Sequence record: PP337211
Length of the DNA: 64,000 nucleotides
From: Escherichia phage ERS-1
Direction: 5' to 3' (one strand)
The stretch's first letter is position 1; each line of letters opens with the position of its first letter. Shown one piece after another: positions 31,251 to 64,000 of this stretch. The position numbers were made by a program, and so were the translations under genes. The notes beneath the pieces were generated by a model that was not told the origin of the DNA, did not search any database, and saw only the letters and a program-made list of their open reading frames with translations.

Positions 31251-31281
31251 CCCGGCCTCGGTCGGGCTTTCCCTCGCCGCG

Positions 31282-33730: not shown

Positions 33731-33749
33731 TCAGAAGGATGATCTGCTT

Positions 33750-34500: not shown

Positions 34501-34544
34501 TGTGAGTTCTCCAGTTCCGTTGTGGCCGGCACCGTCCCGACCTG

Positions 34545-35616: not shown

Positions 35617-35762
35617 TTCCTCCCCGGAGGGAGTCGCGGGAGGTCGTGAGCTTCAGGCCCTTGCGCCTGGTGCTTCCCTGGGCCTTCTCGAAGGCTTCGT
35701 CGGGTCCTGGCCTGGCTCTTGACGTGGTAGCTGCGGACCTCGAAGGAGCCCTGAGGCTGCCT

Positions 35763-36915: not shown

Positions 36916-36952
36916 TTCTCCCGTTTCTGTGGTTGCCGTTCTCGTTGAACGT

Positions 36953-36990
36953 GAAGAAAGTATAGTGGGGGCCTCCGAAGAAGTAAAGCC
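36953..36990 (-). promoter_or_regulatory. Sigma70-like promoter of the recurring family (-35 TTTACT 36982-36987, -10 TATACT 36959-36964, 17-bp spacer)
   Basis: rc GGGGGGGCTTTACTTCTTCGGAGGCCCCCACTATACTTTCTTCACG. Confidence 0.6.
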
Positions 36991-42871: not shown

Positions 42872-42979
42872 TCAACGAATCGCAACGGCTTTGCCTGGTC
42901 CTCGCGCCGACTTCTTGCGGTTTTGCGCCGCGCGGGATCGGGTGCCCGTGTATGCGGCGGAAGGCTTCTTGTAGTTCAT
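42872..42979 (-). CDS. Small basic protein (35 aa as read; may be truncated by a frameshift)
   Basis: rc AAAGGAGCAGCCCATC-ATG (ATG is complement of 42977-42979): MNYKKPSAAYTGTRSRAAQNRKKSARGPGKAVAIR then stop; ~65 nt downstream of the promoter at 43.05 kb. Confidence 0.3.
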   Translation of the reverse strand: MNYKKPSAAYTGTRSRAAQNRKKSARGPGKAVAIR

Positions 42980-43044
42980 GATGGGCTGCTCCTTTCCAAT
43001 CTTGAATCGCGGGTGCTGGTCTGGGGTTGGTTGTTTGGACTCGT

Positions 43045-43081
43045 GTGAAGAAGTATAGTGGTTGTCCGAAGAAGTAAAGCG
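43045..43081 (-). promoter_or_regulatory. Sigma70-like promoter of the recurring family (-35 TTTACT, -10 TATACT, 15-bp spacer as read)
   Basis: rc CCGCTTTACTTCTTCGGACAACCACTATACTTCTTCACAC. Confidence 0.5.
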
Positions 43082-43599
43082 GTTTGGTGGTTTGGCGCGC
43101 GGCGGATTTCCCGCCGGACCTGAAGGCGGGCGTTGAGGGCCGCGCGGTGGTCGGAGGAAGTCCGCGGCACGTGCACCTGGGGCTCCCCCCTCGGTGAAGC
43201 GGACCTTGCAGCGTCCTGGCCTGCTCCTCCGTGTAGGCCATCCCGCCCCCTCGGCTCCCGCTTCGTCGCTTCCGCGTGTCGCTCGGCGGGGGTGCTCCTC
43301 GGGAACGGCGGCTTGTCCGACTTCGGGCTGTCCTTCTGTAGGCTCCTGGGTCGGTCGACCTTGGGCGAATCGAACGGGCTGCCGGGTCTTGTCCCTGTGC
43401 GCCCGGACCTGCTCCGCGGCGGGAGGTGGGCGCAGGCGCGCTCTCGATCGTGCGCCTCGAAGCCGTTCGTTGGTTGGAATTTCCGCCAGTTTCTGCTCCG
43501 ACTGCGGCCTGCTGTCCGGGAAGGCCCGGTGAGCGCTTGCCGAAGCCGGTGCGGCTGGCGTGGAGTTCGGCCTGGTCGCGGAGGTCGTTGGCGTAGTCG

Positions 43600-46400: not shown

Positions 46401-46429
46401 CCGCGGCCTCCAGGCTGTTGGACCTGGGG

Positions 46430-46445
46430 AAGAAGTATAGAGCGT
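46430..46445 (-). promoter_or_regulatory. Probable promoter -10 element of the same family (TATACTTCTTC); -35 degenerate
   Basis: agtata at 46434-46439 (rc TATACT) upstream of the primase-helicase gene. Confidence 0.3.
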
Positions 46446-47094
46446 GAAGCCGTTGTGAGCCGCAAAAAGTTGAGCGCGATTTGACCTCTGCGCAGGCTAC
46501 GTGCCGGCAATTCGTACCGCGGTCCGGGTGCAGGGCTCGGCGAGTTGTTCGTGCCCGGGCGGAAGCCGTTGAACCCGGTCGAAGCCCGCTGTCGTTGGGC
46601 CTGGAACCGTGACGGCTCCGACCTTCGTGGAGGGTCCTTGTCCTGCCCGCGACGTGTTGGGCCTGCCGAGGCGGCGGTCCCTGGTGGTTGCGGTCCTGCG
46701 ACGTTCCCGAGGAAATAACCGCTGGAGCCGTCAAGGACTCTGCCCCTTCTCGCGGCCTAGGGCCTGGCGATACCGTTGCTGCCCGCAAACTTTGGCAGGA
46801 CGGTGCCGTGATGTCGCTGCGCGGCCCTCGATCCTTCCGGTGACGGTCGGGGGTTGCCCGCGCGGCCCTTCTTCTCGACCGCGCGGACCTGGTCCGGTTC
46901 CCCCCTCACCCGCTGTGGTCGATGAGGTATGCCTTGTCTGTCTCGCGCTCGATGACCCTTCCGAGGTCCGGTGTTGTCGTTGCTGCGGCGGTGTTGTTCT
47001 CTGGGGGTTCGCCCCGGACTTCCTCCGGGCGGCGGCCCTTTGCGCGTGTGTTGGTGGGTGAGCAAGTGACCTGCGCGTCTGTTGATAGGGACTT

Positions 47095-49611
47095 TCACGG
47101 CGGAATTCCCTGTCCTGCCCGGAAATACCCTGCTCTGCCAAATTTTGCCGCTGCCTTTGACGGGAGTTCCAGCGGCGTGCGCCTCACGTGGGCGGCTTCC
47201 GCGGCCTCCTTCGTCGTGTACGCTGAAGGCGATCTCGTCGTGGACCTGGATGATGATGTCCGTCTGGCTTCCTGTGCCTCTACGCCGTCCTTGGTCTGGT
47301 CTCGCGGAGGAGCCCTGAATCTGCGGTTGGTCCCTTGTGGTTCTTGCCCGTTCTCCCGTCCTCGTCCTTCGGGAAGTGGTGCGGCGACCGCTCGGTGTCG
47401 TGACGTAGCCGGCGGCCTTCGCCCGGGCTTCGGCCTTTGCCGCTTCTCGATGCAAACGGCCTTGTGGTCGAAGGTGTCCGGGAGGGCCTGACCCTCCGGC
47501 CCCGCGGCCTCGAACCTCCGCGCCCCTTCCGCGACCTGGCGCTGACCCTCCGGGCTGTTCGTGAACGGCCGGAAGCGGGGGCGTGCGGGCGGCCATCGGT
47601 CGGGAGCCCGAGCTTGCGCTCCTCCCCTCGCCCGCCTGTCCCGGTAGGACCTGCCGGTAGATTTCCTTGGCGTCCTTGCGCTTGATCCCCGCCTGTCCGC
47701 CATCATCCGGTGGTTGTCGGTGTTCGGGTCGTTGCGGACTGTCCCGGGCTTCGATTGTGGACCTGCCCTGCTGGTGCCCGTTTGGTCTTTGCCGGGTGGC
47801 GTAGTGGACCGCCTTGCGCGGCTCCTGCTGGCTGTAGTCGTTGGACGCCCTGTGTTGGCCTTCCTCCGGGAGGTAGATGGCCCGCCGCGGCGGCGAACTC
47901 TTCCCCAGCCGGTCGCTGCTGGAGGTTCGGGTGTTCGCTGGACTGTCGCCCGTAGGCAGGCGCCGCGGTCCCGTCGCTTTCGTCTCTTCCCTTCCGGCGG
48001 CGGAGCTGGTCGAACGTCCCGTGGAGGCGCCGTTCGCCATGTGGTCCGGGACGGACTGGCGAAGGTCGTGCGCCTTGTTTGCCTTCCGGCGCGTTCGAGG
48101 AGGCTCTGCCTCGGGTGGCTGATTGAGCCCTGGCTCCTTGTCGATGTTGGGCTTGCCCTGGGAGGTTGTTCGGCTTGATGCCGATGTGTTCGAGGGCGGG
48201 GGCGATCACCTCTGGCTTCCCGGTACGCTGCGGTGATCCGGTGGCCGGTGATCGACCGGACTTGGGCGTGGGCCTCCGTCTCCTTCTCCGCGCCGGGCTG
48301 GTCGGTTGTCCTGGCGGTCGCGTCGATTGCACGCCCCGGCGGCGAAGGCCCGTGAGGATCGGGGCAGGCCGGACTCCCTGGTGCAGGTTGCCCCGGGTCC
48401 TGCCGGACCTCCCGCTCCTGACGGCGGAGGATGTTGGGTGCGCGTGTCCTCCTCCGCGCACTTCCCGAGGCCTTGGCCGGAGGTCCCGGTTGCCCTTCTT
48501 CGGGCAATCCTGTACCACCGCGGCGGCGCGTGCTTCGTCCTTGCCGTGGAAGCCCCACCGCTCCGCGATAGCTTGCATGCTGTAGCCGTCGTGGAGTTTG
48601 GCAGTTGCGGGTCTGCGATCTGGATGTCACGGAAGTAGCGGACCCGCTCCAACTCGAGTGCCGTCCCCGGCGAGGAAGTCCGTTGGTGCCAGGTTGGCCT
48701 CCCAGGTCGCCGGTGAGCACCTTTGCCGGGCGCGGAGGTAGGCCGGTACGCCCTCCGGCCGGTAGGTTGCCCCCGCCTTCGCGTCCGATGGGGAGTACCC
48801 GCCCGGGCCGTCCTCGATTGCGAAGCTGATGCCGGTGATGTAGCTGTTCGGCGACGGCCCGCCCCGGCCCCGAGCTCTCGAGGTCCGGTCCCCGCGTTCC
48901 TGCCGATGGCGACCCGCTCGGCCCTCCCACCAGGGAGGGTGCTGAGGTCCGGGGCCTCCCTGTCGCTGGAGACGGTCGTGAACAGGGTGGTTGGAGGTAT
49001 GAGGCTTGGCTCCCACCTCCGCAATCATCTTGCGCGAGGTTCAGGTGCCGCGGTCTGGCTCCGGGTCGGACTCCCGGAAGGTGAGGATGTGGACCGCTTC
49101 GGCTCCGTCCTCCGTCCTGCCCGTTCGCGGCGGCGAAGGCGTCCGGCATGACGACGGGGCGGAGCGGGGCGAGGACCCCGTTGCGGGCGCCGGACCCTCT
49201 CCCGTAGTGGATCGCCTTCTCGGAGGTCCTGGCGCGGGTCCTCGTGCTCTTGCGGTTGCGGGTCGCGCACTGGTCGCGCGGCCTTCGGTGTAGCGGAGGC
49301 CGTTGGTTCCTCCCAGCTCCTGTGTTGGACGGGCGAGCGGCAGCGCTCATCCGTCCTTGCTTTTCGTTTTGTCCTAACTCTCTTCCTTTGGTTTTGCAGC
49401 CGGAGCGTCTGCTGGCGGTAGTAATACCGGGAACCCCGCCTCCCCGTCGGTGTTGTATGGACCTTGCGGAGGTGCGCGAGTTCTTCCGTGTCGAAGGCGT
49501 AGAACTTCTGCTGCGGGCTCCTGCCGGTTGCTGGCCTCTCCAGTTGTTCGCGCACCACCTCCTCGAGAAGTCCGAGAGACGGCGATGCGGCTGGCGCTTC
49601 GCTGCCCGCAA
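47095..49611 (-). CDS. Family-A DNA polymerase (Pol I-like) with 3'-5' exonuclease domain; frame broken
   Basis: Exo I motif QQKFYAFDTEELAHL (~49490), pol motif A SNDYSQ (~47830), pol motif C TDIIIQVHDEIAFSV (~47245); order and spacing appropriate for a Pol A. Confidence 0.65.
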   Translation of the reverse strand: MRAAKRQPHRRLSDFSRRWCANNWRGQQPAGARSRSSTPSTRKNSRTSARSIQHRRGGGVPGITTASRRSGCKTKGRELGQNEKQGRMSAAARPSNTGAGRNQRPPLHRRPRDQCATRNRKSTRTRARTSEKAIHYGRGSGARNGVLAPLRPVVMPDAFAAANGQDGGRSRSGPHPHLPGVRPGARPRHLNLAQDDCGGGSQASYLQPPCSRPSPATGRPRTSAPSLVGGPSGSPSAGTRGPDLESSGPGRAVAEQLHHRHQLRNRGRPGRVLPIGREGGGNLPAGGRTGLPPRPAKVLTGDLGGQPGTNGLPRRGRHSSWSGSATSVTSRSQTRNCQTPRRLQHASYRGAVGLPRQGRSTRRRGGTGLPEEGQPGPPAKASGSARRRTRAPNILRRQEREVRQDPGQPAPGSPACPDPHGPSPPGRAIDATARTTDQPGAEKETEAHAQVRSITGHRITAAYREARGDRPRPRTHRHQAEQPPRASPTSTRSQGSISHPRQSLLERAGRQTRRTTFASPSRTTWRTAPPRDVRPAPPPEGKRRKRRDRGACLRATVQRTPEPPAATGWGRVRRRGGPSTSRRKANTGRPTTTASRSRARRSTTPPGKDQTGTSRAGPQSKPGTVRNDPNTDNHRMMADRRGSSARTPRKSTGRSYRDRRARGGAQARAPDRWPPARPRFRPFTNSPEGQRQVAEGARRFEAAGPEGQALPDTFDHKAVCIEKRQRPKPGRRPPATSRHRAVAAPLPEGRGRENGQEPQGTNRRFRAPPRDQTKDGVEAQEARRTSSSRSTTRSPSAYTTKEAAEAAHVRRTPLELPSKAAAKFGRAGYFRAGQGIPP

Positions 49612-52574
49612 GGGCGCACGGGTTCGGACTTCGGCCCCGCTCTCCCGTCACCGTCTTGCCTCTCCGGACGGCGCGACCGCTTCGTTGCCCGTGCTCCTCC
49701 CGGCGCTGCCCTGGTCGAGGGCGTCCGCGGCCTTTGCTGTCCTCCTCGTCGGGAGAAGGCCCGGGAGGTGCCTGGTCGCCTGTCGCGGCGTTCCGCGGCC
49801 TCCGTGCCCTTCCCCAGTTCGGGTGGTTCGCTCTCGCCGGGGCCGGCAATGTCGCCTGGCGGAACGCTCCGCGCAGTCGTGCCGCTTGGACCGCCTTGAC
49901 AGGTTCGGCGACGGGTGCGGGTGGAAGGAGGCTCGACGCCGTAGCTGCGCTGGGCGATGTTGTACTGACCGTGGTGCGGGACGATGTGGTCCGGTGGACC
50001 GTCCCGGCCTCCCGGGTCGCGGCGATCCGGGCGGAGCGGCGGACGGCGCGGCGGTTGGCTCCTCCGCCTCGCGCTCCTCGTCATGAATCTTGCTTCCCTG
50101 GCTTCCCTTCGTCCGCGTCTCCTCCCTGCCGCGCCGTCGTCATTGCCTGGGCCTCGCGGGCCTCGAAGGCGGCGCGGCGGCGTTGATCCGTTTCCTTCCC
50201 CGGCCGTCTTCCCGTCGGTGGCGGCGACGTTCTCCGCTCGCCCCGGGCGGCGTCGAAGCGGAGGGGTTGGACGCTTGAAAGCCTTGTGGGCCTTGAGGTT
50301 GGGATTGCTCGCGGCGGAAGAAGGGTTGCGGAAGCCGTCGGCGTCCGGCTCGCCGGTGCCCGGCTCCTGGTCGCCTTCCTGCCGGTCCGTGGAGGCTTGA
50401 AGCGGAAGGGCTCCGCGATCCCGGCGGCGTAGGGGTCGGGCGTTCCTTCCCGGGGTGTTGGGTTGGCGGCGAGGTCCGCGAGCGGGCGACCTTGCCCAGT
50501 ACCCTCATCGGCGTGGAAGTTGGCGCTGACTTGGCGGTAGATGCCTTGTTGGCCCGAGGTCCGGCGACGTCGGCGGAGGTAGCTGAAGTGGACCGCGTTG
50601 GCCCCTGTAGGCTCCCCGGGTCCCGTCGTCGGAGCGGTTGGTGCGGTCATGTCCGGCCGACCGTCGTGATCTGGAAGATGGCCTGAAGGTTGGCAGGGGA
50701 GGTCCTTGCCTTGGCGGCCTGGTCCGCGTCCGCGCTCCTGTCCAGGACCTGGCGGTGGTCATCGCGGTTCGCCTTCGGGCGGCGATGATCTTGGGCAGTG
50801 GTCCTCGAAGAAGTGCTGGCGCCCTGCGGAAGCCGTAGGCCCCGTGGAAGGTCCTGCCGTCGTCCAGTAGCTGCGCTTGCGACCGGCGAAGCGGGGCGCG
50901 CATTCCGCGTCATTGCGTCTGCCCAGCATCCAGAGGCTTTCCATCAGGTGGAAGAAGGGGTTGGCGTCCCGTTCTGCCCGGCGCGCTCCGCCGGCGGAGG
51001 CGCCGGTGGCGACGGGTTCCGGGCGTCAAGCGGGGCCGTTGCGCGAGTCGCGGCGGACGCCCTCGAAGGACCTGTCGAGAGGGCCTCCCGGGAGGGCCTG
51101 TTGTACGTTGCGGGCTTTGATGACTTTGTCTGTTAATTTGAAGATGACGTTGCCGGTCCGGCGAAGGACGCGGAAGCGGTTTGCGGGTGGTGCCCCGTTA
51201 AGCCGGCGTTCGGTTCGCGGATCGGGGGCGATAGCCCGGGACGGCGATTTTAACCGCGAAGGGGCGGGCGAACTGCTCCGCCTCGGCCCGGTTTCATTGT
51301 TTCTGACCGTGGTGACGGAGTTCGTGACGGCCTCCGCGGAGGACTTCGCCTTGGACTTCTCCGCGTCCGCTCGTCCCGGGCCTCTTCTAGGTGTCGGTGG
51401 TGGCTGTGGGCGCTTGGCGTGGTGTACCGGCGTTGTACTCGTGGGACTTGGCGATGCGGCGGCGCTCCCCGAGGTCGCGCGTGCGAAGCGTTGGCCCTCG
51501 AACTGGACCTTGACGTCGCCGTGGTCGGCAAGAAGCCGTCCGGCGCCTGCCCTTCCCGCTTGCGGAGCGGTTCCGGGTAGATGTCGTTGTACACGGCGTC
51601 CCCAGGGTGAACTTCTCCGCCTCCCTGGGCTTTTTTCGCGGGCCTCGAAGGCGTGCTGAGGACCCCTTGCCGCTCGCGGATGTAATTGGACCCGGCACCT
51701 GCCCGAACCTGGCCTCCAGTTCGTCGATGCCGCCGGAATGGTCCGGCGGCGAGGTTTCGATCCGGCGAGGGTGGTTGCCTTGCGCCGTGGTGCTCCAGCG
51801 GGTTTCTTGCCTTCGTCGGTGGTGCGCTTGCTCGTCGAACTTGGCGTGTGTTCGATGTCCCGGGCCTCGAACCGCGGCCCCCGCGCGGGCTCCCGAGCTG
51901 CGGCGGTCCGAAGGTTTCGTCGAAGCCCCGGGCGTCCGTGTTGGCTTGGCTTCGGCTCGATCAGTTTCCGCGTTCGTCTGCTCCGGGCGGGGCTTCGCGG
52001 CGAGGTCGTGCCCTGCTGGCGGTCGAGCCCGCGGATCGCCCCGGCAGGGCGTTGGCCGGTTCCGTGACGTCCTGGGCGTCGTGGTAGCGGGTGTGGCGGA
52101 GGTCGGTCACCGTTGCCCGGACGGCCCCCGCCGACCAGCGGTGCTGCTGGAATTTGGCCCTGCGCTTTCGAGGGTCGGAACCCGCGGAACCTTGGGGCTG
52201 CACTTGGCGGGCTCCGCGTCGCGCGCCCGTTCCTCGCGGTCCTCCCGGTACGGCCCGGCAATCTCCGCGATGTAGCGGTGCTTGGTCCGCTGTACCCTCC
52301 TTGGAGGGGTCGGACTCCGCGCGGATCGTGAGGCTCCGGGCGCCGCCTTGTTGCCCGCGGCGGCGTAGTCCTCCGGCGCTTCGCCGCTTCGCGGGCTCGA
52401 GTCCTCCCCTTTGCCGGGTTCCCGGCTCCGCCTTGTCCTGGAGAGCGGAGGGTGTCGGCTGTTGATGTAGCGGGCGATGGTGAGGGCGGGTCTTGTAAGG
52501 TGCGGGTGGTCCGCGTAGGGCTTGCGGATGTTCTCCTGGTCCTGGTCGTCCCGGGTTGGCTTCGCGGCAAGATG

Positions 52575-53245
52575 TTAGGGTACTGCCGCCCTCGCGAACC
52601 GGGTCCGCGGTCCGGGGCCGGGCTTCCCGGCCTTGCGGTCGGTAGACGTCGTGCCGGGCCCTTGAAGGCGGCGATGTCGTCGACGCGTGGGTGGTCGGTT
52701 CGGGGTCCTGGTCGGGCTCTCGATGACGGCCTTGATGTCCTTCGGGGCCGTCTCCCTGTGGATGTCGCGGACCGTCTCGCCGTCCGCCGTGGCCTCTCGC
52801 CGGACCCGGGCGATGGTGCGGTGCTTGTCGGCCTCTGGTTCTCCTCGACGGGCTTCCCGCCGTCGCGCTCCTGGATGTGCTTTGGGCTTCCAGCGGCGTG
52901 TCCTGAAGGCCGGGTTGTTCCGCCGTTCGCCTTCGACCCCTGCGCGTATGTAGATGGGCACTGACACCTCGCGCCCTCCAGCCCTACCGCCTTCACGTCC
53001 GGGCCCCGCCAACCAGCTCCGCGACGGCCTTGGCCGCGGCTTGGGTCTTGATCCGGTCCGGACCGGCGGTGGTCGCTCCGGCGGCGGCGGGGGTAGTCCC
53101 CGATGATGGCGATGCCGCCCGGCGCGTCGCCGGGATCGGCTTGTGGTCCGGGACGATGACGTCGATGACGTGGCCTGCGGATCGCGGTCCTGGCTGCGGG
53201 TGTGGTCTTGCCGGAGCCGTTACTGCCCTGCGTGATGTACTTCAT
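52575..53245 (-). CDS. P-loop NTPase with Walker A in the first 15 residues (ParA- or kinase-like); frame broken
   Basis: rc GGAGAACCCAAG-ATG (ATG is complement of 53243-53245): MKYITQGSNGSGKTT...; later peptides GHVIDVIVPDHKPIPA, ADGETVRDIHRETAPKDIKAVIES. Confidence 0.35.
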
Positions 53246-53556
53246 CTTGGGTTCTCCACCGGTTGAAAACGGCGGAGCCGGAGCCCCGCCTGGTTGCTGT
53301 TGGTTGCGTGATCGGGATGATCTTGCGCTCGCCGCCGTCCTCCTCCGGCGGGTCTGGTTCCACGATCTTCTTGAAGTCGGGCGAGCGGCCTTCGCCGCTC
53401 CGGCTGGTTCCGAACCGGCGGGCTTGCCCTTCGTCCGCTGTCCGCGCGGTGGAGACCTGCCGGTGGGGCGCGTCCCTTGACCTCCTGGAAGGGCTGGCCC
53501 GTCGGTCCGGTGAAGGTTCGGCACGCGCTGGCCGTGGCCGGTCTGCGGTGATCATT

Positions 53557-53955
53557 TCACGCCTTCCAAAGCCAGTGCCGGCTCCGCCGGCTCCGGGCTT
53601 CCCGCGGCGGGTCCAGGCGTCGCGTAGGTCGGTTGCCGTGCTCGTCGCCAGTTCCGGTACCTGGCCGGTGGGCTTCGACCCGGCACGGCTCCGCGATGGT
53701 CTTTTCGGGCTCCGGCCTGGTTCTCCGCGGGCTGTCGGCCAAGGCTTTGGTACGCTCCGGTCCGAACCGCTTTGGAGGCGTTCGATCATTGCCGGGGCCC
53801 GCTGTAGCCCGCCTCCCGAATTTTCGGCGATTGTGGTCGTTGCCGACCGCGGCCTGGTGCTCCAGCGTGTGGCGGATGTCGTCGTGGGTGACGATCCCCG
53901 GGATCTGCGGATTGACCTGAATGGAGGTGTAGATGCCCTGACGGCGCTCGGCCAT
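53557..53955 (-). CDS. Hypothetical protein
   Basis: ATG is complement of 53953-53955: MAERRQGIYTSIQVNPQIPGIVTHDDIRHTLEHQAAVGNDHNRRKFG... Confidence 0.25.
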   Translation of the reverse strand: MAERRQGIYTSIQVNPQIPGIVTHDDIRHTLEHQAAVGNDHNRRKFGRRATAGPGNDRTPPKRFGPERTKALADSPRRTRPEPEKTIAEPCRVEAHRPGTGTGDEHGNRPTRRLDPPREARSRRSRHWLWKA

Positions 53956-54143
53956 TTCGTCAGATGGTCCTGAAGGCTGATGGCCCCGGCAGGCCGTGCC
54001 GTTGTGGTCGTTGCCGGTGTTCTGTGACTTCTGGGCGTAGCTGTAGGGGTTCCGCTTCGGGTGCCCATGGCCCGTGACGGTAGCCGAGACGGCTGGAAAG
54101 AAGATGGTGCCGGGCTCCCGAAGGCTTCCGCCCCCGCCGGGCG

Positions 54144-54680
54144 TTATGGGCGCCGTCCCGGTTGGGAAGGGGTCCGTGAAGCTGGAGAAGTAGCCCGCGG
54201 CGGAGGTCCGGGACTTCGAGAGGGTTTGCGGACCTGCTCGCCGGAGTTCGCCGGGACGCCGATGAGGCCGGTGCCGCGGTAGCCCCGGAACCCGCTGTCG
54301 ACGTAGCAGGCGCGTGCCGCCTGTAGCCCTGGAGGTTCGTTGATCGCCTCGCTGAAGGGGCGGGCGCGGGAGCCTCGCTCGTCGTTGCGCTTGTCCTGGT
54401 ACCTGCCCTGAAGGGGCTTGGCGTTCGGGATGCGGATGTGCGGGAGGTAGGTGACGTCGTTTGAAGCGGCAGGCCCTCCACCTCCTTCTTGTCGTCGTCC
54501 TTCGCGTCGCGGACCTTCCCCTCTGCCCTTGCCGGAACTTCGCGCGGCTGGTCCTGTGGGTTTCCTTCTCCCCCATCGGGTCCTGGAACTCCCGTTGGTT
54601 CGGTCCGGCGGGCGAAGACTTGTAAGCCTCCTGCAGCGGCTTCGCCGGTTCTTCTGTCCTTGCCGCGTGGTCGGTGCCAT
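54144..54680 (-). CDS. dUTPase / dCTP-deaminase-fold protein (tentative); frame broken near the N-terminus
   Basis: rc GAAGGAGA-ATG (ATG is complement of 54678-54680); peptide [71 protein letters not shown], resembling the RSS...(I/V)D(S/P)G(F/Y)RG core of the dUTPase superfamily. Confidence 0.35.
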
Positions 54681-54704
54681 TCTCCTTCAACTGTGAAAGT
54701 CAGC

Positions 54705-54738
54705 GCCTTACCCGGAAGAAGTAAAGCGGCGTTAATTC
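54705..54738 (-). promoter_or_regulatory. Weak member of the promoter family (-35 TTTACT intact, -10 degenerate)
   Basis: rc CGCCGCTTTACTTCTTCCGGGTAAGGCGCTGACTTTCACAG directly upstream of the RBS at 54681-54688. Confidence 0.3.
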
Positions 54739-57049
54739 GGCCCGGCTCGCCCGTCGCTTCCGGGCGGCTCCCCTGGCCTTCGTCTCCTCCGAACGCCGGC
54801 GACCGGCGAACTGCCCGGAACCGTGCGGCGACCCTTCCGCGTCGGGTCGTCTGGTTGTCCTTTTGGGACCCGAGGGTGAACGCTTGGGGTTGACGGTGGC
54901 GGTCGGTCGCTGTGAACCTGGCGTCACCGCTGTCGGGGATCGGCAATTGTTCGAAGGGCTCGAGGATAGCCGATTCCTGCCGCTTGTAGTCGATGTTGGC
55001 GTGTACCGTGCTGAAGTACCTGGAGCAGGTCGGGTCCTGTGCTCCCGTCTCCGGGTCCTCCTTACAGCGGGCGTTTAGGTGAGCCGGTCCGTCACGGTTA
55101 CCGATGTTCGGGCGATGGGGCGTGGATGGACGGAAGCCTGTCGAGCGGGTCGCTGCGTTTCGGCTTTTGGGACGGTAACGGGTTGGGGAACGGGGCGGAG
55201 GCGTCCCGGGCCGCGTCCGCGTACCCGTAGCCCTCGTCCGGATGGGTCGATCCGGTTGCCCGGTCCGGCCCGCGGCCTTCTCGATGTACTCCCGGCTGGC
55301 GTCCTGGCTCCGCAGATCCGCTTGTGGAGGATGACGTCGTAGTTGCGGAGGCTCGCCTCCTCCAAGCCCTCGAGTGCCCGGCGGCGACCGTCCCCCGAGC
55401 CGACACCGATGACCGGGTCCCGGCAGTCCGGGAGGTGCGGGGCGGTGCGGACGGCCTCCGCGGCGTTCTCCGTGATCGACTCCGGGAGCTTGGGGCGTTG
55501 GCTGTAGCTGTCGTGGTAGTTCTCCTGGTGCTCTGGCCGGACGGGCGATCGCGGAGCGGCCCGCCGGGATGTCCAGGTCCGCCCCGAGCTGGCGAGCGTG
55601 CTGCTGTTGGACGCGCGGGCGTCCGCGGCCCCGTCGCGCTTGAAGCGGGGCCCGTAGTTCGCTTGCACCCGTTCCCCAGCTGCTGGCGTAGGCGACCGCC
55701 CTGCCCGCCTTCGAGCGGCACGTGTCCGGCTGCCGATGGTGGTTCTTCTGCTGGTCTCGATATGGGCGAGGCCCCGTGAATCTCGCTGAAGGACGGACCC
55801 GGAGCGCCCTGCTCTCCCGCTTCAGGATCGGCACCCCGTCAGCTGGTGTTCGACCGGGGCGTCGTTGACGATTGTTGCTGCTCTTGGGCGTGGTCGAGGA
55901 AGGCCCGTGCGGCGGAGGCGGCCTGCCTCGGTCGAGCCCGCCGTCGATTTCCCGGATGTCGTTCCGGGTGGGAGCTGGCCCTTCGCGGGATTTTCCGGTT
56001 TGCCGCCGCACCGTCTCCACCTTCTGGATGTTCGGCGGGCGGTTGCCGGGTGGGGCGAGGTCCGCGAACTGCCGGTTTGTAAGTCCGCGACCCTGGGCGA
56101 TCGCCTCGCGCTTGGGCTTCGCGTTCTCCGGGTACTCGTGAGCCTCGCGCCGCTCCGCCGTCGCGGCCTTCTCCGGTCCTTGAAGCGAAGACGGCGGCGT
56201 TGTCCGAGTCCGCCGGCATCTCGACCGGTTCCGGCTTGTCGCGATCTTGAAGCTGATCGGGACTGAAGCCGTTGTGCTCCTGGGCGCGGGCGGAGACGGT
56301 GCGGAAGGGGCGCTCCTCCTCCGTCGCCCGGGCTCCCCGGTGGGTGCCCCGCCTCCCGGGCGGTCGCCGAGCGGGCCTGGAGGGAGGTCCCGCAGTCGGC
56401 GGTGCGACCCTGGCCTGTAGCGGCGGCGCTCGCGTCCCCGGAGGCCTGTGACCCCCGGCGGGCGTCTCCTCCTCGTGGTGGGCCGCGACGTCCCTTTGCG
56501 GAACCTCGCCCTCCTTCTCCAGGAAGGAGGCGACCCCGGCGTGGAGTAGCTCCAGGTTGAGGCTAGCCTGTGGGCGGGTGGAGAAGTCCCCCGCCTGCCC
56601 GCGCCGAACCAGGGCCGTGCACACGGGGTCGGATCGCGGTGGTGATCCGGTGTCGGCCGGGAACGTCTCGATGTCCGGTTGGGGCAAGTTTCTGCCGTGT
56701 CTTTTCTCTGGTATGCGTGACCGATTTTCCCGCTCGTGTCCTTGCACATGTCCGGTTGGGTAATTGGCGACTGAAGGAAGGCTCCGTGCGGACTTCTTCG
56801 TTGACGTGAATACGGGATGGACCGTCTGCCCTTGCCGTCGCCGTCCTCCGTGATCCGGGTGAATCCCGCAGGTAGCTTGAGGGCTCCCTTCTGTATCCCC
56901 GCTCCGCCGGGCACCTCCGGCGGAGGGTAGCCGCGTGCGCTCCGAGGCTCCCAGTGGCCTTGCCCTGCTTGGGCTGGCGGGCTACCGGCGGGCGTCCTGC
57001 CTTCGGCGGACTTCTGCGGCTCGTGGGCCGGGATCGCGTGGCCTTCCGG

Positions 57050-57690
57050 GACCTCACGTGGAACCGCTTGTGCCGTCCGCGGCGAAGGCGGAGCGGCACC
57101 CGCAGCCCTTCCGCTTCATGTCCTGCTGAAGCCGGAGGGCGTGGCTCGGTCCGGGCTTGTTGCTGCCCGGGCTTCGACCTGTTCCTGCCTTGGTCGTCCG
57201 TTTCGGGGCGGGATCCTGTATGTCGGGAGACGCCCGCTCCAGCCCTCGCGGCGGGGATCGGGGCGTGGCCCGGGCGGCCGTGTCGGCGCCGCGCGGGGCG
57301 CGGGCCTTCTTCTCCTCCGCGGACTTCGGAGCCTTCTGGGCCTTCGGAGGCGACGGGGCGGGGGTTGCGGTTTGTTTGCGGTTTCGACCTTCTGGGTTCG
57401 GCCTGCTCTGCCGCTCAAACTTCCGGGTGCGCTTCGGCATAACGCGCCAGGCATCTTCTGGTGTGGGGCAATGGCGGTGGTCTTGTTGGCGAAGCGGCGC
57501 ACGTTCGGACGGACTTGCCGTTGCGGAAGGTGCCGATGACTTCGTCGGACCTGCTCGACCAGGGCTGGGCCGGAGGGCTCGCTGGGAGGCTTCGGTGTAG
57601 GCGACGTTGTCGAAGTTGATGGTGTTGGCGGTAGGCTCCTTTTCTGGGGTTGAGGTGCGATCTTGTTCGACCGTGAGAGAATCTTAACCC
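57050..57690 (-). CDS. Hypothetical small protein(s) downstream of RNR copy 2; frame broken
   Basis: rc peptides [69 protein letters not shown]...EEKKARAP. Confidence 0.25.
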
Positions 57691-57712
57691 TGGCCCCCGA
57701 AGAAGTAAAGTG
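57678..57712 (-). promoter_or_regulatory. Sigma70-like promoter of the recurring family (-35 TTTACT 57704-57709, 17-bp spacer, -10 TAAGAT 57681-57686)
   Basis: rc CACTTTACTTCTTCGGGGGCCAGGGTTAAGATTCTC. Confidence 0.45.
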
Positions 57713-58201
57713 GTTTGACTAACTTTTTCAGGTTCTCGGTCCGAAGGCCGGGTGCCCGTTGGACGGCGGAGGGCGAACCGTTGAGGCCTTCTTCCCTGAA
57801 GGCCCGGGCGGCGTCCCTCGTGCCCTGGTTCTCCTGTACCGGCTGGTTGCGCCCCGAGGTGTGCGGTACCCTGGCGACCTCGAAGCCCTGCGACGTCCTG
57901 GCAAACCCTTGCCGGTGGAAGTCCTGGCGCTGGGCCGGATAGCCGAAAGCCTCTGCGACGTCTCCGCCGGGTCAGGAGGATGACGTGCCGACCGCCGGTG
58001 GTGGGCCTCCACCGCGGCCGCGGGCACCCCGCGTCCCGGGCGGGCCGCTTGTCGTCCCGCTTCCGGCGCCCCGGGAAGGTGTGGAGGGTGTCGGCGCGGT
58101 CGAAGGTCTTGAGGTAGTCCTTGGCGATAGGCCCGCCTGCTTCGCCCTACGCCCTCCCGCGGAGGACCGCGGAGGGGAGCCAGGGGCCGGTCGGGTCCGT
58201 G

Positions 58202-60130
58202 TTAGGTCCGGCGCTGGCCGATGAGTAGGGGCTTGTTCGGTTCTTCGGGCTCCTCGCTTTCTTCTGGTGACGTTTGGTTTGAGGGCTCGCTCTGTACCGG
58301 GATGGCCCTTTGGGGTGTCCTGGTTGCGCGAAGGAGGAACCCGGCCGGTGAATCTGGGTACCGCCTTCTGTCTGTCCTTTGCACCCTCTCCGTCCGGTGG
58401 CCGGGTCGACGCGGTCCGGCTCGCCGGCTCCTCCGCCGGGGCGTCCGCTTCGGGCTCGCCGCCGTCTCTTCCTTTGCCAGGATGCCCACCGCTTCCCGCC
58501 GGGCGGAAGGTCGTGTGCCCTTCGCCCCGCCTTCCCTGGTGCTGGCTGTGTCCCAGTCTTCCCGCTGATGTCGGAGCTGCCGCCGCTCCGCTCGCCGCGG
58601 AACGACCCGCTGGGCGGCGACGGGCGGGGCGGCGACGTGTTCCTGGACGGTGACGCGGGAGGGGCCTTGCCGCGGACCCGAACGCGGTCCGTAGTCCCCC
58701 GCCTTCGCCTCGCGGGCCGCCTGAACTCGACGGCGGTGCGGTCGAAGCTGTAGGCGAGTTCGGCCGGACCGGAGCTGACGTTGTCGGGCGTGCCGACGGT
58801 CCCGGTCGGGGCGATGGAAGTGAGGTGGGAGTTGCGGATGCCGTATTTGGCGATGGCGTCCTGCGTCCTCGCGGAGGGTCTTGATGAACTGGCCCTGAAG
58901 GTACTTGTCCTTGTCGAACTTCGGGAAGGAGCCCTTGACCTTGGCGATGTGGGCGCTGCCTGGTAGGCTGCGCGTGCGCGTGTCGGTACCCTGCCTCGAA
59001 GGCGAGGAAGGCGGGCGAACCGTACGCGGCCTGGCTTCGCGCGTTGCCCTGCCGGCGATCCCGAGGCCCTTGCGGCGCTTGTCCTTGGCTTCCTGCTTCT
59101 GCTGCGGCGGGTACATCGCGCCATCAACCCGTTGCCATCGCGCGGACCACCTGCGGATGTCCTCGCGGACTGGTCCCGTCGAAGGCGTAGCGGCCCGCCC
59201 CGTCCTCTAAGATGTACTTGACCTGTTGAAGGAGCCCAGGAGGCAGGCACCGTAGGGCGGCAGGGGTTGCTCGCCGGTGGGGTTCGTGGCGGCGATGGTC
59301 TGGCGTCCTGGCGCTCGTTTGCGGTTGATCGCGTCGATTAATGGCGTACCCGGCTCCGCCTGTCCCGTTCGTGCGATCGCGTCCTGGCGCCTGGGCGTCG
59401 CTTCGCGGGCAGGTCTGGCCCTCGAAGGTGAGGGGAACGGCTCGCCGGAGGCGATGCGGCGCTGCCTTGTCGGTGATGGCGACGGAGACGTTGAAGCTGG
59501 TTGCTTTGGGTCTGCCGAAGGAGACGGGCCGCCGCTTCTGGGCTCCCTCCGGGAGTTGGTCCAGGTCCGGCGGCTGAACGTCCTTCCCGGGTTGCTTGGC
59601 GTGAATGAACTCCTCGATGTCGGGATGGTCCGCGGATCGTTGTCCGGGCTCCGCGGCGATGGCCGGCAGGAGGCGACGGCTGGCAATCGCGTCGAAGATG
59701 TGGGTGAAGCTGATGGGGCCGGAGGAGTGGGACTGGAGCTTGCGGATCGGTCGCCGCGAGGACGGAGGGTGCTGAAGTCAGGCCGATCCCCGCCGCCCTT
59801 CCCCGGTATCGCGTGGCCGCGGCTTCCGCGGCCCGGATCGCTTGACGGAGCCTTCGCCGTCCCAAGCTGTCGTTGATCGTCCCGGAGACGTAGGTTGTAT
59901 GGCGTGACCTGGCGAGTGGAGCCCGTTTGCGGACTGGATGCGGCCCGCCGGGAGGAAGCTGCGCCTGGAGGGCGTCCCGGAAGTCCGCGAAGTGCTGGTC
60001 ATTGTTCCTTCAGGGCCGCGGCGATCCGGTTCGATGGCCTCGCGGAAGGACTCGCCGCTGCCGCGGTACTTCTGGGCGTGTAGTTCTTGTGAGTAGGGTA
60101 CTTGAGGACCTGTTGTGAGTCTCCTGAAGG
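58202..60130 (-). CDS. Ribonucleotide reductase catalytic (alpha) subunit, copy 2 (3' end present); frame broken
   Basis: Same motifs as copy 1 plus RQTIAATNPTGEQPLPPYGACLLGSFN (NPCGE-type active-site region); C-terminal ...EESEEPEEPNKPLLIGQRRT then stop at 58202. Confidence 0.8.
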
Positions 60131-60139
60131 GTTGAGGGC

Positions 60140-61306
60140 TTTCTATCGTGTTGTTGCTCCTGTTCTTGGGTAGGCTGGTGAACGAGGTCGATGTGTTCCG
60201 CGGCCCGGGTAATGGCGGTGTATGCCCCTTTCCTTCCGGTCCTTCCCGTACCCCTGTCCGGGCCTGGCGGACGTTGTTCCTTCGGGAGCCCTGCGACTTG
60301 TGGACGGTGAGCGGCTGCCCGTCGAACTCCTCCGCGTCCTCCGCTCCCAAGATTCGCTTGTTGCCGTGGAAGTAGTGGGGGTGGGCGCTGACTTCGACCT
60401 TCGCGCCGTCCTCGCCTTCGATGTCCTTTACGGTCGCCGCTGTCGAAGATCGTGTCGCGGCGGACCTTCCGGCTGGCCGTTGAGGCCTGCCCGTGGTTGT
60501 TGCGGAGGTGCCGCTCGTCGCCTTCCTGGGTGGGCGTCTGTCCGCCCGAGGAGTTCCCGGGTACGTCCGTTGCTCGTGATTCTCGTGGCGTCCTGCCGGG
60601 TCAGGAGCCCTTGGCGGTGGAGGTACCATGTCCCGCAGTTCTTCGCGCTGTGGTGGCGGTGGGAATTTGTGGCTGGTCCGTAGTCGCCGGGGCGGAGGCG
60701 CGGCCCTCGCGGACCTCCTTGGAGGTCCGGAACGATCGGGTTGTCCTGGGCCTGGCGGTGAATCTCCGTGAGGATGTCGGGCTTGTTCTTGAAGAAAGGG
60801 CGCTGCCCGGCGGGAGCTGTCCGGGATCGCCTGGTGAGGATCGGTGCCGAAGCCAGGCCCTCCTCCCGCCGTCGGTTGCGGAGATTTGCGAGCGTGGCCT
60901 CGAACCAGGGGCGACTCCGCGTTGAGCTGGAAGGTCGGGCGGGCGAGGTCGATCTGCTCCGCCTTGATCGCCGCAATCGACCTTCGCGAGGGTTTCCGGG
61001 ACGGGCTTGTGAAGTGAAGAGCCGCGCCCGCTCCGCTTGGAGTTCCTTCTGGTGCTGCTGCGACTTGTCCTTGGGCGTGTAGATGAGCTTGTGAATGGGT
61101 TCCGTTGGTCGCCCCGGACTTCGTGAGGACGTGAGCGGCCTTGCCGGTGTAGGCGGCGAAGTGCCGGACCGTCGACGGTCGCGGCGAGGTGTTTGGCCGG
61201 GTGGTCTTGCCGGTTCCGGCGTACCCGGCGAGCTGGAAGGCGGGCTTGTCCCGGGTCTTGAGCGATGCTGCCCGGTTGGCGCGGTCCGCCGTTGCGGACT
61301 CCGTCA
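60140..61306 (-). CDS. RecD/Dda-like SF1B DNA helicase, copy 2 (intact ATG start with RBS); frame broken internally
   Basis: rc GAAACGGAGAACGGTC-ATG (ATG is complement of 61304-61306): MTESATADRANRAASLKTRDKPAFQLAGYAGTGKTT...FAAYTGKAAHVL...; motif V TVHKSQGS in frame with HYFHGNK; motif VI YTAITRAAEH one frame off. Confidence 0.8.
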
Positions 61307-61334
61307 TGACCGTTCTCCGTTTCTGATGAAAAGA

Positions 61335-61355
61335 AGGGGGGCCCTTGAAGGCCCC
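61335..61355 (-). terminator. GC-rich hairpin upstream of helicase RBS (copy of 3052-3072)
   Basis: ggggggccc-ttgaa-ggccccc inverted repeat. Confidence 0.35.
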
Positions 61356-61364
61356 CTGAAGGTA

Positions 61365-62100
61365 CGGCCCGAGGGCGGGCCGTCCGGGCTGGTCCTCCCG
61401 GTGGAATCGGGTCCGGCTTGCCGCCGCCTGCGCCTGGGCTTCTTCGTCCGCGAGCCCGGAGCCTGCGAACGGGCGCGCGGGCCTCGCCCTGCTCGATCGT
61501 CGATTCGATGTTCGGCGGATGGAACCTGCGGTTGTGGGCAGGAGGTGAGCCTGCTGGGCGTTCTCGCCGTCGAAGGCGATGGCGTCCCGTTGAAGAACTG
61601 GCCCTTGTCGTTCTCGCTTGCGGTCTTGAGGCGGTAGCGGTGGGCGAACCTGCGGAGCCGGAATGCGGCGACCGTCCGGCGGAATCTGGATGGCTTGGCC
61701 TTGGTCCTTCCTGCCCTTGCACTTCTTGATCTTCGTGGAGCTGAAGGCCGGTGACCGCTTCCAGGCGTTGCCGTGGTCGTTGCGCGATGCCGGCTGGCGC
61801 AAGGTTTCGATCCTGGCTCGTCGCCGTCCGGGGTGCTGCAGCTGCCGTGCCCCGAGGACGCGGCCTTGGCGGGTTCACCAGGTCGCCGTCGACTTCGTGG
61901 ATGCCCGCAAACCGCCGCCCGCATCGCGTGGGCTTCCACGCCACGTACACGTGCCGGGTGGTCGCCGGGACGAGTGGACGCCCTTGGCCGTCCCGGCTTC
62001 GCCGGTCCCGGTGTTGGATCATGCCCTGGTGGTGCTGTCGTTCTCCTGGAGCTGCGGGCTGAGGGCCTGAGAATCTGGAGGAACGGGATGCTGTAGTCAT
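61365..62100 (-). CDS. Hypothetical protein upstream of helicase, copy 2; frame broken
   Basis: Homologous to 3075-3800; shares the SIPFLQIL and DTIAFDGE peptides but with different indels. Confidence 0.3.
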
Positions 62101-62702
62101 TGCTGGTCTGGCTCTCGAAAACCCGCGCGCCCGCGTAGTGGTGCGTGCCTGGCCTCTGCGGTTGCGGTGTTCTGTTCCTTCAGCCCGAGGTCGGTGGTCT
62201 TGCTATCGGTCTTCTGGCGGTTACAGGCTCCTTCGGTTCGATGTGAGCGGGTCGATTGGGCCCCCGGTCGAATAGCCCTGCCGTTCCTGCCGGTGTACCC
62301 GCGTCCCGCGGGGCGGTTCGGCTCGGGAGGAAGGCCCGGGGCCGTCCTCCTTCCTGGTTTGTTCTTCGATCTTGGACGTGCTGACGATGGACCCAGGTGT
62401 CGGGGGACTTCCTCGCCTTGCGTGGCCCTCGCGGACGAAAGCGGTAGGGTTGAAGGATGGACGCTGGCGTTGTCGCCGCCTCGAACTCGTCCGCGAGACG
62501 CTGGCGGTTCGCTGCCTTCTGCCCCTCGCCCTTGCCGAAGGCGACGGTGACCCGCGCTCGATCATCGCGGCGCGGCCGTTCTGCTCGAGCCGGCGAAGGC
62601 GAGCGGGGCCTTGGCCTTCGGGATGCTGGCGCGGATCGTCTCGTCGGGTTTGATCTTCTGGCGGTGGTGGTCTTGAGCTGCCAAGTTGCGCCGATCTGGT
62701 CC

Positions 62703-62887
62703 TTAGTTTGTACCCTGGCGCTCCGCGATGTCGCGGAGTTCTTCGCGGGCCTTGTCGAGTTGGGCTTCGAGGTCTGCGACCTTCGACTGGGCGCCTGTTG
62801 TTCGGCCTGCTGAGCGAGTTGGTCCTGGCTTGTCGCCGGCGGTCTGAGGTTGGACATAGTCCAGGTATGCGTTTTCACTTGAGGCAT
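62703..62887 (-). CDS. Small coiled-coil protein, copy 2 (ATG and stop present, one internal frameshift)
   Basis: rc GGAGAACCAC-ATG (ATG is complement of 62885-62887); C-terminal frame ...SKVADLEAQLDKAREELRDIAERQGTN then stop at 62703; length is not a multiple of 3. Confidence 0.35.
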
Positions 62888-62927
62888 GTGGTTCTCCGTT
62901 TCTTCGGTAGAGGGGTATCCCAATTGC

Positions 62928-62965
62928 TGAAGAAGTATAGCCGGTTGTTCGGAAGAAGTAAAGAG
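62928..62965 (-). promoter_or_regulatory. Sigma70-like promoter of the recurring family (-35 TTTACT 62957-62962, -10 TATACT 62934-62939, 17-bp spacer)
   Basis: rc CCTCTTTACTTCTTCCGAACAACCGGCTATACTTCTTCAG; paralogue of 4597-4630. Confidence 0.55.
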
Positions 62966-64000
62966 GCCCAGGCGTCCACCGCGATGTAGCGTTGGTCCTT
63001 GCCGCTCCCTTAGCAGGGACGTCCCGTCGTTGGCGTCCGCGGCGATGGCGACGGCGAACCGATTGGGTACCGGATCGCCCGAGGCGAGGTGGTCCCCCGG
63101 CCCGAAGTCGGCCCGCTTTCTCCTCGGGCCGGTCATTCGGCTCCGGGCGGAAGGGGCCGCGGTCGGGCGGCGGGCACCGGCCTTCCCCAACTCCTCCGCC
63201 GGCGAGGTTGAATTTGGGCTCGAACCGCTGCTCGTCGCGGTCCCTGCGGTGTTGGTCTGTACAAATACACGGCTCGGGGTAGTCGTCACAACCTGTCTTT
63301 GAGGCGGTCGCCGGTGATCTGGCTCGCCCGTCCAATTCGTTTCGGCTTTCCCCTTCCCTTCCCCGGAGTCCTGCGCCCAGGTCGATGCACCTGCCCGTTG
63401 TTGGTCTGTCCGATCCGGTGGGCGCGGTCCTCCGACTGGAGGCGGTCGTTTGGCTTGAAGCTGTTGGAATAATAAAATGACCTGCTCTGGCTGTGGTCGG
63501 GTGCCGGTGCTGCGTCGCCCCCGCCGCGGGGTTGCCCTTTAGCCTCGCGGGCCCGCTCCTCCGGCGGACGGCCTCGCGCCCTGGACCCTGCCCGTTGTGG
63601 GCAGCGGGCGCTCGCCCTGGAACCGGGCCTCGGCGTCCGCCCGCTCGTCGTTCGTTTCCTGCCCTGCGGCGGACCGCGCCGACGCCGCGCTCGCGGAGGG
63701 CGTCCATTTGGTGATGTCCGCTTCTGGAACCGGGCCCGGTCATCGCCTTGCGCCGGACTCCGACGGTTCCGGGGTGTCGGTGACGGCTCGGCCCCGGGAT
63801 TGTGTACCCGGGTTCCGCTTCGTCGTCGGTCGGGAGGTAGCTGGCGTGATCTGCTGGAGGCGGAGGAGCCGGGTGATGGCGAGGGCGGCGATGACCGGGG
63901 CGGTGCCCTCCGCGCCCTGTCGGGGCGTCTCCTGGTCGGTGGGTAGACGAAGCCGTTGAAATTTTTTACCGCCGTTTGCCCGGTGCCGGGCGTCCGGCGA

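Follow-up and report, generated by a model that had tools for sequence, protein, structure and literature searches.

The 64,000-nucleotide sequence analysed here (the window) represents, in reverse complement, the genome of a Yuavirus, a Pseudomonas aeruginosa siphophage like M6, YuA and PAE1, and after one full unit it continues without a junction into the same sequence again. Very probably, it is an uncorrected single-molecule read of a native Yuavirus strand longer than one unit, with its errors at modified thymines. An earlier note, made from the window alone, had described the first 5.7 kb as recurring at the end in a diverged copy. In the evolutionary sense that description is wrong, since the differences between the two copies are sequencing errors.

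Colinearity with Yuavirus genomes and the length of the unit

The window aligns in order with the genome of phage Pa-L (61,641 bp), from Pa-L position 21657 to 61641 and then from 1 to 27572; here 67,556 reference bases (1.096 units) are matched by 63,956 bases of the window. The alignment is unbroken at 58292, which lies inside a single HSP (window 55101-63956 versus Pa-L 18324-27572); thus, there is no junction where the second copy begins. PAE1 is likewise colinear with the window throughout, and the colinearity crosses the ends of the PAE1 and Pa-L records, at window positions 31325/31326 and ~37300-37344. (The ends of the Pa-L record overlap each other by ~44 nt.)

Colinearity, nucleotide identity and the hypermodification gene set all place the window within Yuavirus. 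With the phages of this group (M6, YuA, PAE1, AN14, Pa-L, Chuck and BL8; Mesyanzhinovviridae), it has in common full colinearity, a one-strand gene order and the following cluster for thymidine hypermodification.

1..58292, minus strand: one complete Yuavirus unit (M6/YuA/PAE1-like), colinear with PAE1 and Pa-L, ~5% compressed by net deletion errors
50141..56693, minus strand: thymidine-hypermodification cluster, frameshifted remnants, comprising the next seven entries
50141-51127, minus strand: thymidylate-synthase-like
51185-51690, minus strand: Nmad5
51767-52662, minus strand: HMUDK helical domain
52716-53245, minus strand: 5-hmdU DNA kinase
53304-54675, minus strand: radical-SAM
55185-55875, minus strand: PLP enzyme
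55931-56693, minus strand: amino acid:DNA transferase

The gene set for 5-hmdU-derived modification that was tested consists of the TS-like hydroxymethylase, 5-HMUDK, AADT, the PLP enzyme and the radical SAM enzyme. The PAE1 hypermodification proteins, which carry Pfam domains PF00303, PF18748, PF18723, PF18724, PF00291 and PF04055, all map to window 50141-56693.

As written, however, the window is ~20% off the Yuavirus phages and contains no intact genes. All 16 PAE1 proteins tested across it match as fragments only, at 25-59% amino-acid identity (60-75% for short stubs), and in 15 cases the match is divided among two or three frames. This ~20% is read error rather than the mark of a new lineage. 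Raw identity to Yuavirus members is 78-83%, but where the nearest CA or TG dinucleotide is 8 nt or more away, ~94% of positions are retained, and there the window shows only ~3.3% substitutions and 2.3% deletions relative to Pa-L. Within the 6-kb segment, the clean genomes of PAE1, Chuck, BL8 and AN14 share 98.9-99.4% identity with one another and have 0 indels, and each of the two copies in the window is 78-80% identical to these four genomes.

Because net deletions have left the window ~5% shorter than the real DNA, the true unit would be about 61.6-62.1 kb and not the ~58.3 kb proposed earlier. Counted in window coordinates, the period grows from 58,292 where the repeat starts to 58,332 where it ends.

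In the gene content of its early region, the window is nearest to Pa-L, Pa-C and Pa-S. Between 54727 and 55101 it has ~370 nt that are extra relative to Pa-L; tblastn with five PAE1 endonuclease proteins gave no match in the window. No tRNA genes were found in the window.

Two copies of the end segment

Pairwise alignment of the two ends, the check that the earlier note had called for, confirms that they correspond. In blastn, window 4-5668 and 58296-64000 form one colinear HSP (E = 0) of 5925 columns that are 85.5% identical, with 379 mismatches, 480 gapped positions and 378 gap openings. In a global alignment, 5078 positions match and 355 mismatch, and 275 insertions stand beside 235 deletions; the indels are thus symmetric between the copies, and identity is ~75-96% in each 100-column bin. 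The copies are non-identical in both substitutions and indels (510 positions), as had been noted, but the reported perfect blocks of 100-150 bp are not what is found: the longest perfect run is 163 nt, and it is the single one above 100 nt, followed by runs of 73, 60 and 58 nt. Comparison of the whole window with itself reveals no second long repeat, the sole other match being a 39-nt direct repeat at 34546/36954. The repeat length of 5.7 kb is a lower bound dictated by the length of the window, since copy 1 begins at base 1 and copy 2 stops at base 64000.

The repeated segment carries, on the minus strand, genes for ribonucleotide reductase, a Dda-like helicase, proteins like PAE1 Orf36, Orf35 and Orf34, and a DNA helicase. 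The order given earlier (ribonucleotide reductase, helicase, then further genes) holds roughly as described, with all genes on the minus strand in both copies.

1..5708, no strand assigned: copy 1, first pass over the repeated segment (Pa-L MN871463 ~21657-27572), truncated by the window start
58293..64000, no strand assigned: copy 2, second pass over the same segment, truncated by the window end, with no junction at its start
86..1781, minus strand: ribonucleotide reductase (PAE1 Orf38 homologue), copy 1, frameshifted, in 3 frames
58378..60149, minus strand: ribonucleotide reductase, copy 2, with frameshift places that differ from copy 1
1877..2960, minus strand: Dda-like helicase (PAE1 Orf37 homologue), copy 1, frameshifted
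60181..61286, minus strand: Dda-like helicase, copy 2, frameshifted
3131..3907 (copy 1) and 61451-62213 (copy 2), minus strand: PAE1 Orf36 homologue (Pam3 gp34-like, PF23977)
4980..6582 (copy 1) and 63289-63943 (copy 2, truncated by the window end), minus strand: DNA helicase (PAE1 Orf33 homologue)

Two non-identical copies do exist in the sequence, and it could be postulated that they represent a genuine direct terminal repeat or tandem duplication of at least 5.7 kb that has diverged by mutation. This is extremely improbable. The ends of the repeat are the edges of the window, so that the segment has neither boundaries of its own nor a novel junction, and all related genomes carry it once. 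Furthermore, the differences lack an evolutionary signature: 355 mismatches stand against 510 indel positions, each ORF is shredded in both copies, the differences cluster at CA sites, and the unrepeated remainder of the window deviates from the clean relatives in the same manner. Thus, neither long terminal repeats in the form of a bounded element nor a decayed tandem duplication, both of which had been suggested, is tenable, given the lack of a junction at the start of copy 2, the single copy in the relatives and the destruction of all reading frames in each copy.

Long-read libraries do contain ligation chimeras, and two phage DNA molecules might have been joined end to end during library preparation and read as one. 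Random joining of permuted ends would, however, break colinearity, and colinearity with Pa-L holds over the whole window; neither adapter sequence nor a discontinuity in the map, which a chimera might show, was seen within it. There is thus hardly any likelihood of such a joint.

Strand-specific errors at CA sites

For the analysis of errors, PAE1 and Pa-L served as clean references. The nominally best database match for the window, PV844354.1 (Pseudomonas phage EKU1; 57,133 bp, "complete genome"), was rejected for this purpose because of its fragmented genes, a block (EKU1 ~30982-57133) that is inverted relative to the window and a deviation of ~7.5% from clean relatives. A comparison of the window with EKU1 at positions far from TG/CA is dominated by the errors of EKU1 itself.

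The window consists of 10.4% A and 21.2% T, versus 15.9% A and 19.9% T in the likewise oriented PAE1 genome. Reference A is retained in 58% of cases versus 91% for G, almost nothing is miscalled as A, and the loss of A is even along all 64 kb. It is centred on one dinucleotide: A in window-strand 5'-CA-3' (complement 5'-TG-3') is retained in only 18% of cases (n=3772), versus 81% for other A. When the T of the complementary TG is wrong, it appears as C, A or G or is missing, and the outcome varies between the two passes. The footprint extends ~±5 nt around CA sites and ~-5 to +2 at isolated sites; retention reaches 94-96% at 8 nt or more from CA sites, and non-TG thymines far from TG sites are called normally (92-95%). 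No wider motif was found in the flanks from -4 to +5 around CA/TG. The AT-rich stretch at 31.4-31.7 kb, which retains A, was considered as a less modified region, but it merely has few CA sites together with some strain differences.

The same sites account for much of the disagreement between the passes: a CA site is found no more than 3 nt away from 67% of the discordances and no more than 5 nt away from 78%. In the perfect run of 163 nt there are 0 CA sites versus 8.5 expected. Both passes are wrong at 67% of CA sites, but the wrong call is the same in only 36%. The suggestion in the earlier note that a circular or concatemeric genome had been read past its origin was essentially right. The errors, however, are more than independent noise, being systematic and strand-specific with 5'-TG-3' of the complement at their centre, which explains the patchy pattern of matches that it had seen.

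The asymmetry between strands is pronounced: A at CA sites is kept in 18% of cases, versus ~75-83% for T at window-strand TG, where ~17% of T is read as C. Errors that are strand-asymmetric, motif-centred and limited to a footprint the size of a k-mer are those expected when a single strand of base-modified DNA is read by nanopore. The weaker window-strand effect, T to C at TG (17%) and TA (13%), is found even far from CA sites, is not spatially anticorrelated with the CA errors and likewise has no wider motif. A read of one strand only would not lead one to expect it, and it may point to a general bias of the basecaller, a partial two-strand consensus or another cause.

These patterns also bear on the idea of an assembly artefact, in which a noisy-long-read assembly of a circular or permuted genome kept its overlapping ends untrimmed and the two copies came from different reads. 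Untrimmed overlaps are common; the Lydia assembly has 127-bp terminal repeats, the Pa-L record has its ~44-nt self-overlap, and EKU1 shows that poorly corrected Yuavirus assemblies reach databases. Nevertheless, the error asymmetry is constant over 64 kb, with CA-site errors of 62-100% in every 1-kb bin, never falling, and in a two-strand consensus most CA sites would be recovered (75% are retained in EKU1 versus 18% in the window). Reads of mixed orientation would produce alternating blocks of CA-type and TG-type errors. None was seen, and a mosaic of reads from both strands was rejected, because the CA-site and TG-site error rates in 1-kb bins are not anticorrelated (r = +0.18). An artefact of this kind is therefore unlikely, although a variant of it, an unpolished contig built from reads of the same strand, is still conceivable.

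EKU1 is similar to the window in being a Yuavirus record with fragmented genes and TG/CA-focused deviations. It differs in that both strands are affected, and more mildly (CA retained 75%, TG 83%, versus 18% for CA in the window), as would be expected of a two-strand consensus. The window and at least the EKU1 record are unfit for gene calling or evolutionary inference; scans that take such sequence as real would yield false pseudogenes, false divergence and a false compositional skew (A 10% versus T 21%).

Proposed thymidine hypermodification and the molecule that was read

Taken together, these results have led to a model in which one native DNA strand was read, most likely by nanopore, the window being the reverse complement of the read strand. 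Having covered one unit, which is ~62 kb long in the DNA and 58.3 kb in the sequence obtained, the read would have re-entered the same sequence, so that 58293-64000 would be a second pass over 1-5708. Failure of basecalling, rather than mutation, would set the two passes apart, as essentially each T of 5'-TG-3' on the read strand would disturb the signal, leaving the base right in 18% of cases.

The modification behind these errors may be the known thymidine hypermodification 5-NedU (5-(2-aminoethyl)uridine), which replaces ~30% of T as measured in M6 (PMC5889632). TG contains 32.7-32.8% of all T in Pa-L and PAE1, in agreement with the ~30% in M6 and with 5-NedU at 5'-TG-3'; for TG and TC together the figure would be 72%. 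From restriction resistance, Flodman et al. deduced that TG/TC is preferred, and they cited an unpublished TG specificity of the M6 kinase (PMC6449724). The "divergence" of the copies would then be a genome-wide single-molecule footprint of Yuavirus hypermodification in which essentially every TG thymine is modified, whatever the sequence around it from -4 to +5, and T in TC, TA and TT is read as normal T; this proposal is somewhat more likely than not. If so, the published "TG or TC" would be sharpened to a strict TG rule (~33% of all T), and the sites of 5-NedU could be predicted in any Yuavirus genome. The error pattern itself would hold biological information, placing the hypermodification at TG in quantitative accord with the chemistry (~30% of T), and the weaker T-to-C signal at partner-strand TG and TA could indicate a further effect.

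Motif-centred nanopore errors are known for Dam/Dcm methylation and for dPreQ0 in CAjan and iggy; like those in the window, they are strand-specific, have a short motif and a footprint of a few nucleotides, and are reproducible between passes. Compared with these cases, the effect in the window is far stronger, with 82% failure at the base and many deletions. In addition, its 2-nt motif occurs about every 17 nt, so that, unlike in the Dam/Dcm and dPreQ0 cases, the whole read falls to ~80% identity.

The molecule itself may have been a virion chromosome whose terminal redundancy is at least 9.6%, or else a replicative concatemer. Such a redundancy is on the large side for a headful phage, and thus the two forms are about equally possible. 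In headful phages of the P22, SPP1 and T4 types, as in replicative concatemers, the end of one unit continues seamlessly into the next, and the same is seen in the window. Unlike in those phages, the window is cut and the physical ends of the molecule lie outside it, so that the redundancy of at least 9.6% of the unit is a minimum. The wrap-around repeat is what is ordinarily expected of a permuted, terminally redundant or concatemeric genome. Yuaviruses have been described as circularly permuted with headful packaging, and therefore an over-length molecule is to be expected in this phage group (PMC11946847).

The end repeat and the genome unit

The two ends of the window are, as the earlier note had proposed, colinear copies of each other. 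A blastn comparison returns a single HSP that pairs 4-5668 with 58296-64000 (85.5% identity over 5925 columns, E = 0, 379 mismatches and 378 gap openings), and in a global alignment of copy 1 (1-5708) with copy 2 (58293-64000), 5078 positions match, with 355 mismatches, 275 insertions and 235 deletions scattered along the entire length. Comparison of the whole window with itself reveals no other long repeats. Because the repeat reaches both edges, with copy 1 starting at base 1 and copy 2 stopping at base 64000, its length of 5.7 kb reflects the window borders, and the true repeat is at least that long.

Both copies match Yuavirus phages of P. aeruginosa (M6, YuA, PAE1, AN14, Chuck, BL8 and others) over their full length at 82-85% identity, and in these genomes the segment is present once. 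Judged by sequence comparison, the whole window is a Yuavirus genome in reverse complement. PAE1 (NC_028980; 62,181 bp, with every gene on the same strand) is colinear with it, the ends of the linear record being crossed without a break at window 31325/31326. Colinearity is cleaner still with Pa-L (MN871463; 61,641 bp): with window 1 placed at Pa-L 21657, the alignment runs to 61641, back to 1, and then on to 27572 at window 63956, such that 63,956 window bases cover 67,556 Pa-L bases, or 1.096 genome units. The HSP at window 55101-63956 crosses the start of copy 2 without a junction; consequently, the repeated unit is the entire genome, and copy 2 is a second pass over it. Thus, one of the readings offered earlier is borne out, namely an error-containing read of a phage genome that continues beyond the origin. 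The proposed unit of about 58.3 kb is not, since net deletions compress the window by ~5% and the real unit is ~61.6-62.1 kb. Long terminal repeats are rejected given the unbroken colinearity with Pa-L through the copy 2 start.

The family Mesyanzhinovviridae, which includes the Yuaviruses, is described as having no defined genome start, suggesting circular permutation and headful packaging (PMC11946847). Such a read would be expected either from a virion chromosome whose terminal redundancy is at least 9.6% or from a replicative concatemer; a ligation chimera is unlikely, as colinearity with Pa-L is unbroken throughout the window. As a feature, the wrap-around repeat is ordinary, and this phage group is already known to show it. 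Three stretches do not align to Pa-L: ~350 extra bases at 54727-55101, ~100 extra bases at 46681-46829, and a diverged stretch of ~1.3 kb at 13594-14911. Homologues of five PAE1 homing/HNH endonuclease proteins were not detected anywhere in the window.

Read error rather than divergence

Within the repeated segment, the clean genomes PAE1, Chuck, BL8 and AN14 share 98.9-99.4% identity with no indels, while the two copies are 78-80% identical to these four and ~80-85% identical to each other. When 16 PAE1 proteins from across the genome were searched by tblastn, each gene was found only in fragments of 25-59% amino-acid identity, a few short stubs excepted, and 15 of the 16 were split over two or three frames. 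In the repeated genes, the frameshifts lie at different positions in copy 1 and copy 2. The divergence between the copies is not biological, and the term "diverged copy" is wrong in its evolutionary sense, given relatives ~99% identical without indels and frames broken in both copies. A decayed tandem duplication is likewise rejected: there is no junction, each relative carries the segment once, and damage in the non-repeated 52 kb equals that in the repeated ends. The sequence should be handled as a read full of errors and not as a genome sequence.

Loss of A at CA sites

The errors are far from random. Against PAE1, a reference A is kept in 58% of cases versus 91% for G; 15.5% of reference A is called G and 13.9% is deleted, and there are almost no miscalls to A. 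Hence the odd composition of the window (A 10.4%, T 21.2%, G 36.4%, compared with 15.9%, 19.9% and 32.2% for PAE1 in the same orientation). The loss is even along all 64 kb and is confined to 5'-CA-3' on the window strand, that is, 5'-TG-3' of the complementary, phage-coding strand. Mapped through Pa-L, the A of a CA site is kept in 18% (n = 3772 sites), and all other A in 81%. There is no wider motif, the flanks from -4 to +5 being without effect. Retention is 61-68% at ±1 and ~83-87% at ±3-5 nt from a CA site; from 8 nt onwards, A, C and G are kept in 94-96%. Overall, the footprint spans about ±5 nt, and around isolated sites it extends from roughly -5 to +2 in read-strand coordinates. Read-strand T in TC, TA and TT far from any TG is called normally (92-95%), and at least 8 nt from any CA/TG the window differs from Pa-L by just 3.3% substitutions and 2.3% deletions.

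The same sites account for the patchiness between passes. Among reference positions covered by both passes, those within 3 nt of a CA site make up 32.5% but hold 67% of the discordances, and those within 5 nt hold 78%; the discordance rate is 55% at the site itself and declines to 5.8% from 10 nt onwards. Neither pass is correct at 67% of CA sites, and an identical wrong call occurs in only 36%. The earlier description of perfect blocks alternating with indel-rich stretches holds as to patchiness, but only one perfect run exceeds 100 nt. This block of 163 nt (reference 22198-22363) contains no CA sites against 8.5 expected; thus, perfect blocks are CA-free stretches and indel-rich stretches are clusters of CA sites.

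A secondary effect concerns window-strand T: 17% of T in TG and 13% in TA are called C, compared with ~4.5% in TC and TT. It persists with no window-strand A within 7 nt, hence also far from CA sites, and shows neither flank dependence nor spatial anticorrelation with CA errors. On the read strand it is A to G after a pyrimidine, and it may stem from a generic basecaller transition bias worsened by poor signal scaling, from a trace of two-strand consensus, or from another cause such as a further modification.

Thymidine hypermodification and related records

In Yuaviruses, ~30% of thymidine is replaced by 5-(2-aminoethyl)uridine (5-NedU), whose synthesis from 5-hmdU takes place after replication and involves a DNA kinase, an amino acid:DNA transferase, a PLP enzyme and a radical-SAM enzyme (PMC5889632; PMC8989533). 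The cluster is complete in the window as frameshifted remnants, and several PAE1 RefSeq product names in it look wrong.

Hypermodification genes in the window and in PAE1 (NC_028980.1)
Window 50141-56693: complete hypermodification cluster, frameshifted remnants
PAE1 35876-36751: Orf43, "hypothetical"; matches amino acid:DNA transferase PF18724
PAE1 36753-37586: Orf44, "threonine dehydratase"; PLP enzyme of the 5-NedU pathway
PAE1 38113-39555: Orf46, "DNA repair photolyase"; radical-SAM match is weak and does not reach the Pfam cutoff (E = 1.7e-4)
PAE1 39610-40182: Orf47, "terminase small subunit"; matches 5-hmdU DNA kinase PF18748
PAE1 40790-41758: Orf49, "hypothetical"; matches HMUDK helical domain PF18723

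We infer that the errors originate in nanopore reading of modified T. One native strand carrying a bulky modified T would leave a one-strand, motif-centred, k-mer-sized, deletion-rich footprint, and the window would be the complement of the strand physically read. From restriction resistance, Flodman et al. deduced a preference for TG/TC, and they cited an unpublished finding that the M6 kinase is specific for TG (PMC6449724). In Pa-L and PAE1, 32.7-32.8% of T residues stand in TG, in keeping with the published ~30% 5-NedU, whereas TG plus TC would account for 72%. The pattern suggests that Yuavirus hypermodification falls on TG only, not on TC as PMC6449724 also proposes. If so, the error pattern is a by-product of wider interest, a genome-wide single-molecule footprint of hypermodification.

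Another Yuavirus record, EKU1 (PV844354.1, "complete genome", 57,133 bp), also has fragmented genes, with two CDS each for ribonucleotide reductase, thymidylate synthase and portal and five for "DNA helicase". It deviates from clean relatives by ~7.5%, with 134 gap positions in 6 kb, and its block ~30982-57133 is inverted relative to the window. As in the window, deviations are focused at TG/CA; unlike there, they are milder and affect both strands (retention 75% for CA-site A, 83% for TG-site T and 96% for TC-site T), which is what a two-strand consensus of reads from such DNA would look like. EKU1 probably represents a nanopore assembly of hypermodified DNA that was left unpolished or was put together wrongly. 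The window pattern, in contrast, is uniformly one-sided without spatial alternation, and this favours either a single read or a contig built from one read without polishing.

Two further features were observed. Window 31400-31720 is an AT-rich non-coding stretch (GC 47-56% versus 68% elsewhere) containing a run of 12 A, repeats resembling (GATA/GACA)n and recurring TAACTCAC units; it lies directly upstream of what remains of the terminase small-subunit gene (30703-31160) and next to the point where the PAE1 record is linearised, and it may have a role in regulation or packaging. In the early-gene region, a 39-nt direct repeat (34546-34583 and 36954-36992, 97% identical; first copy GAAAGAAGTATAGTGGGGGCCTCCGAAGAAGTAAAGCCCC, second copy one base longer) may represent a promoter or terminator element that occurs twice.
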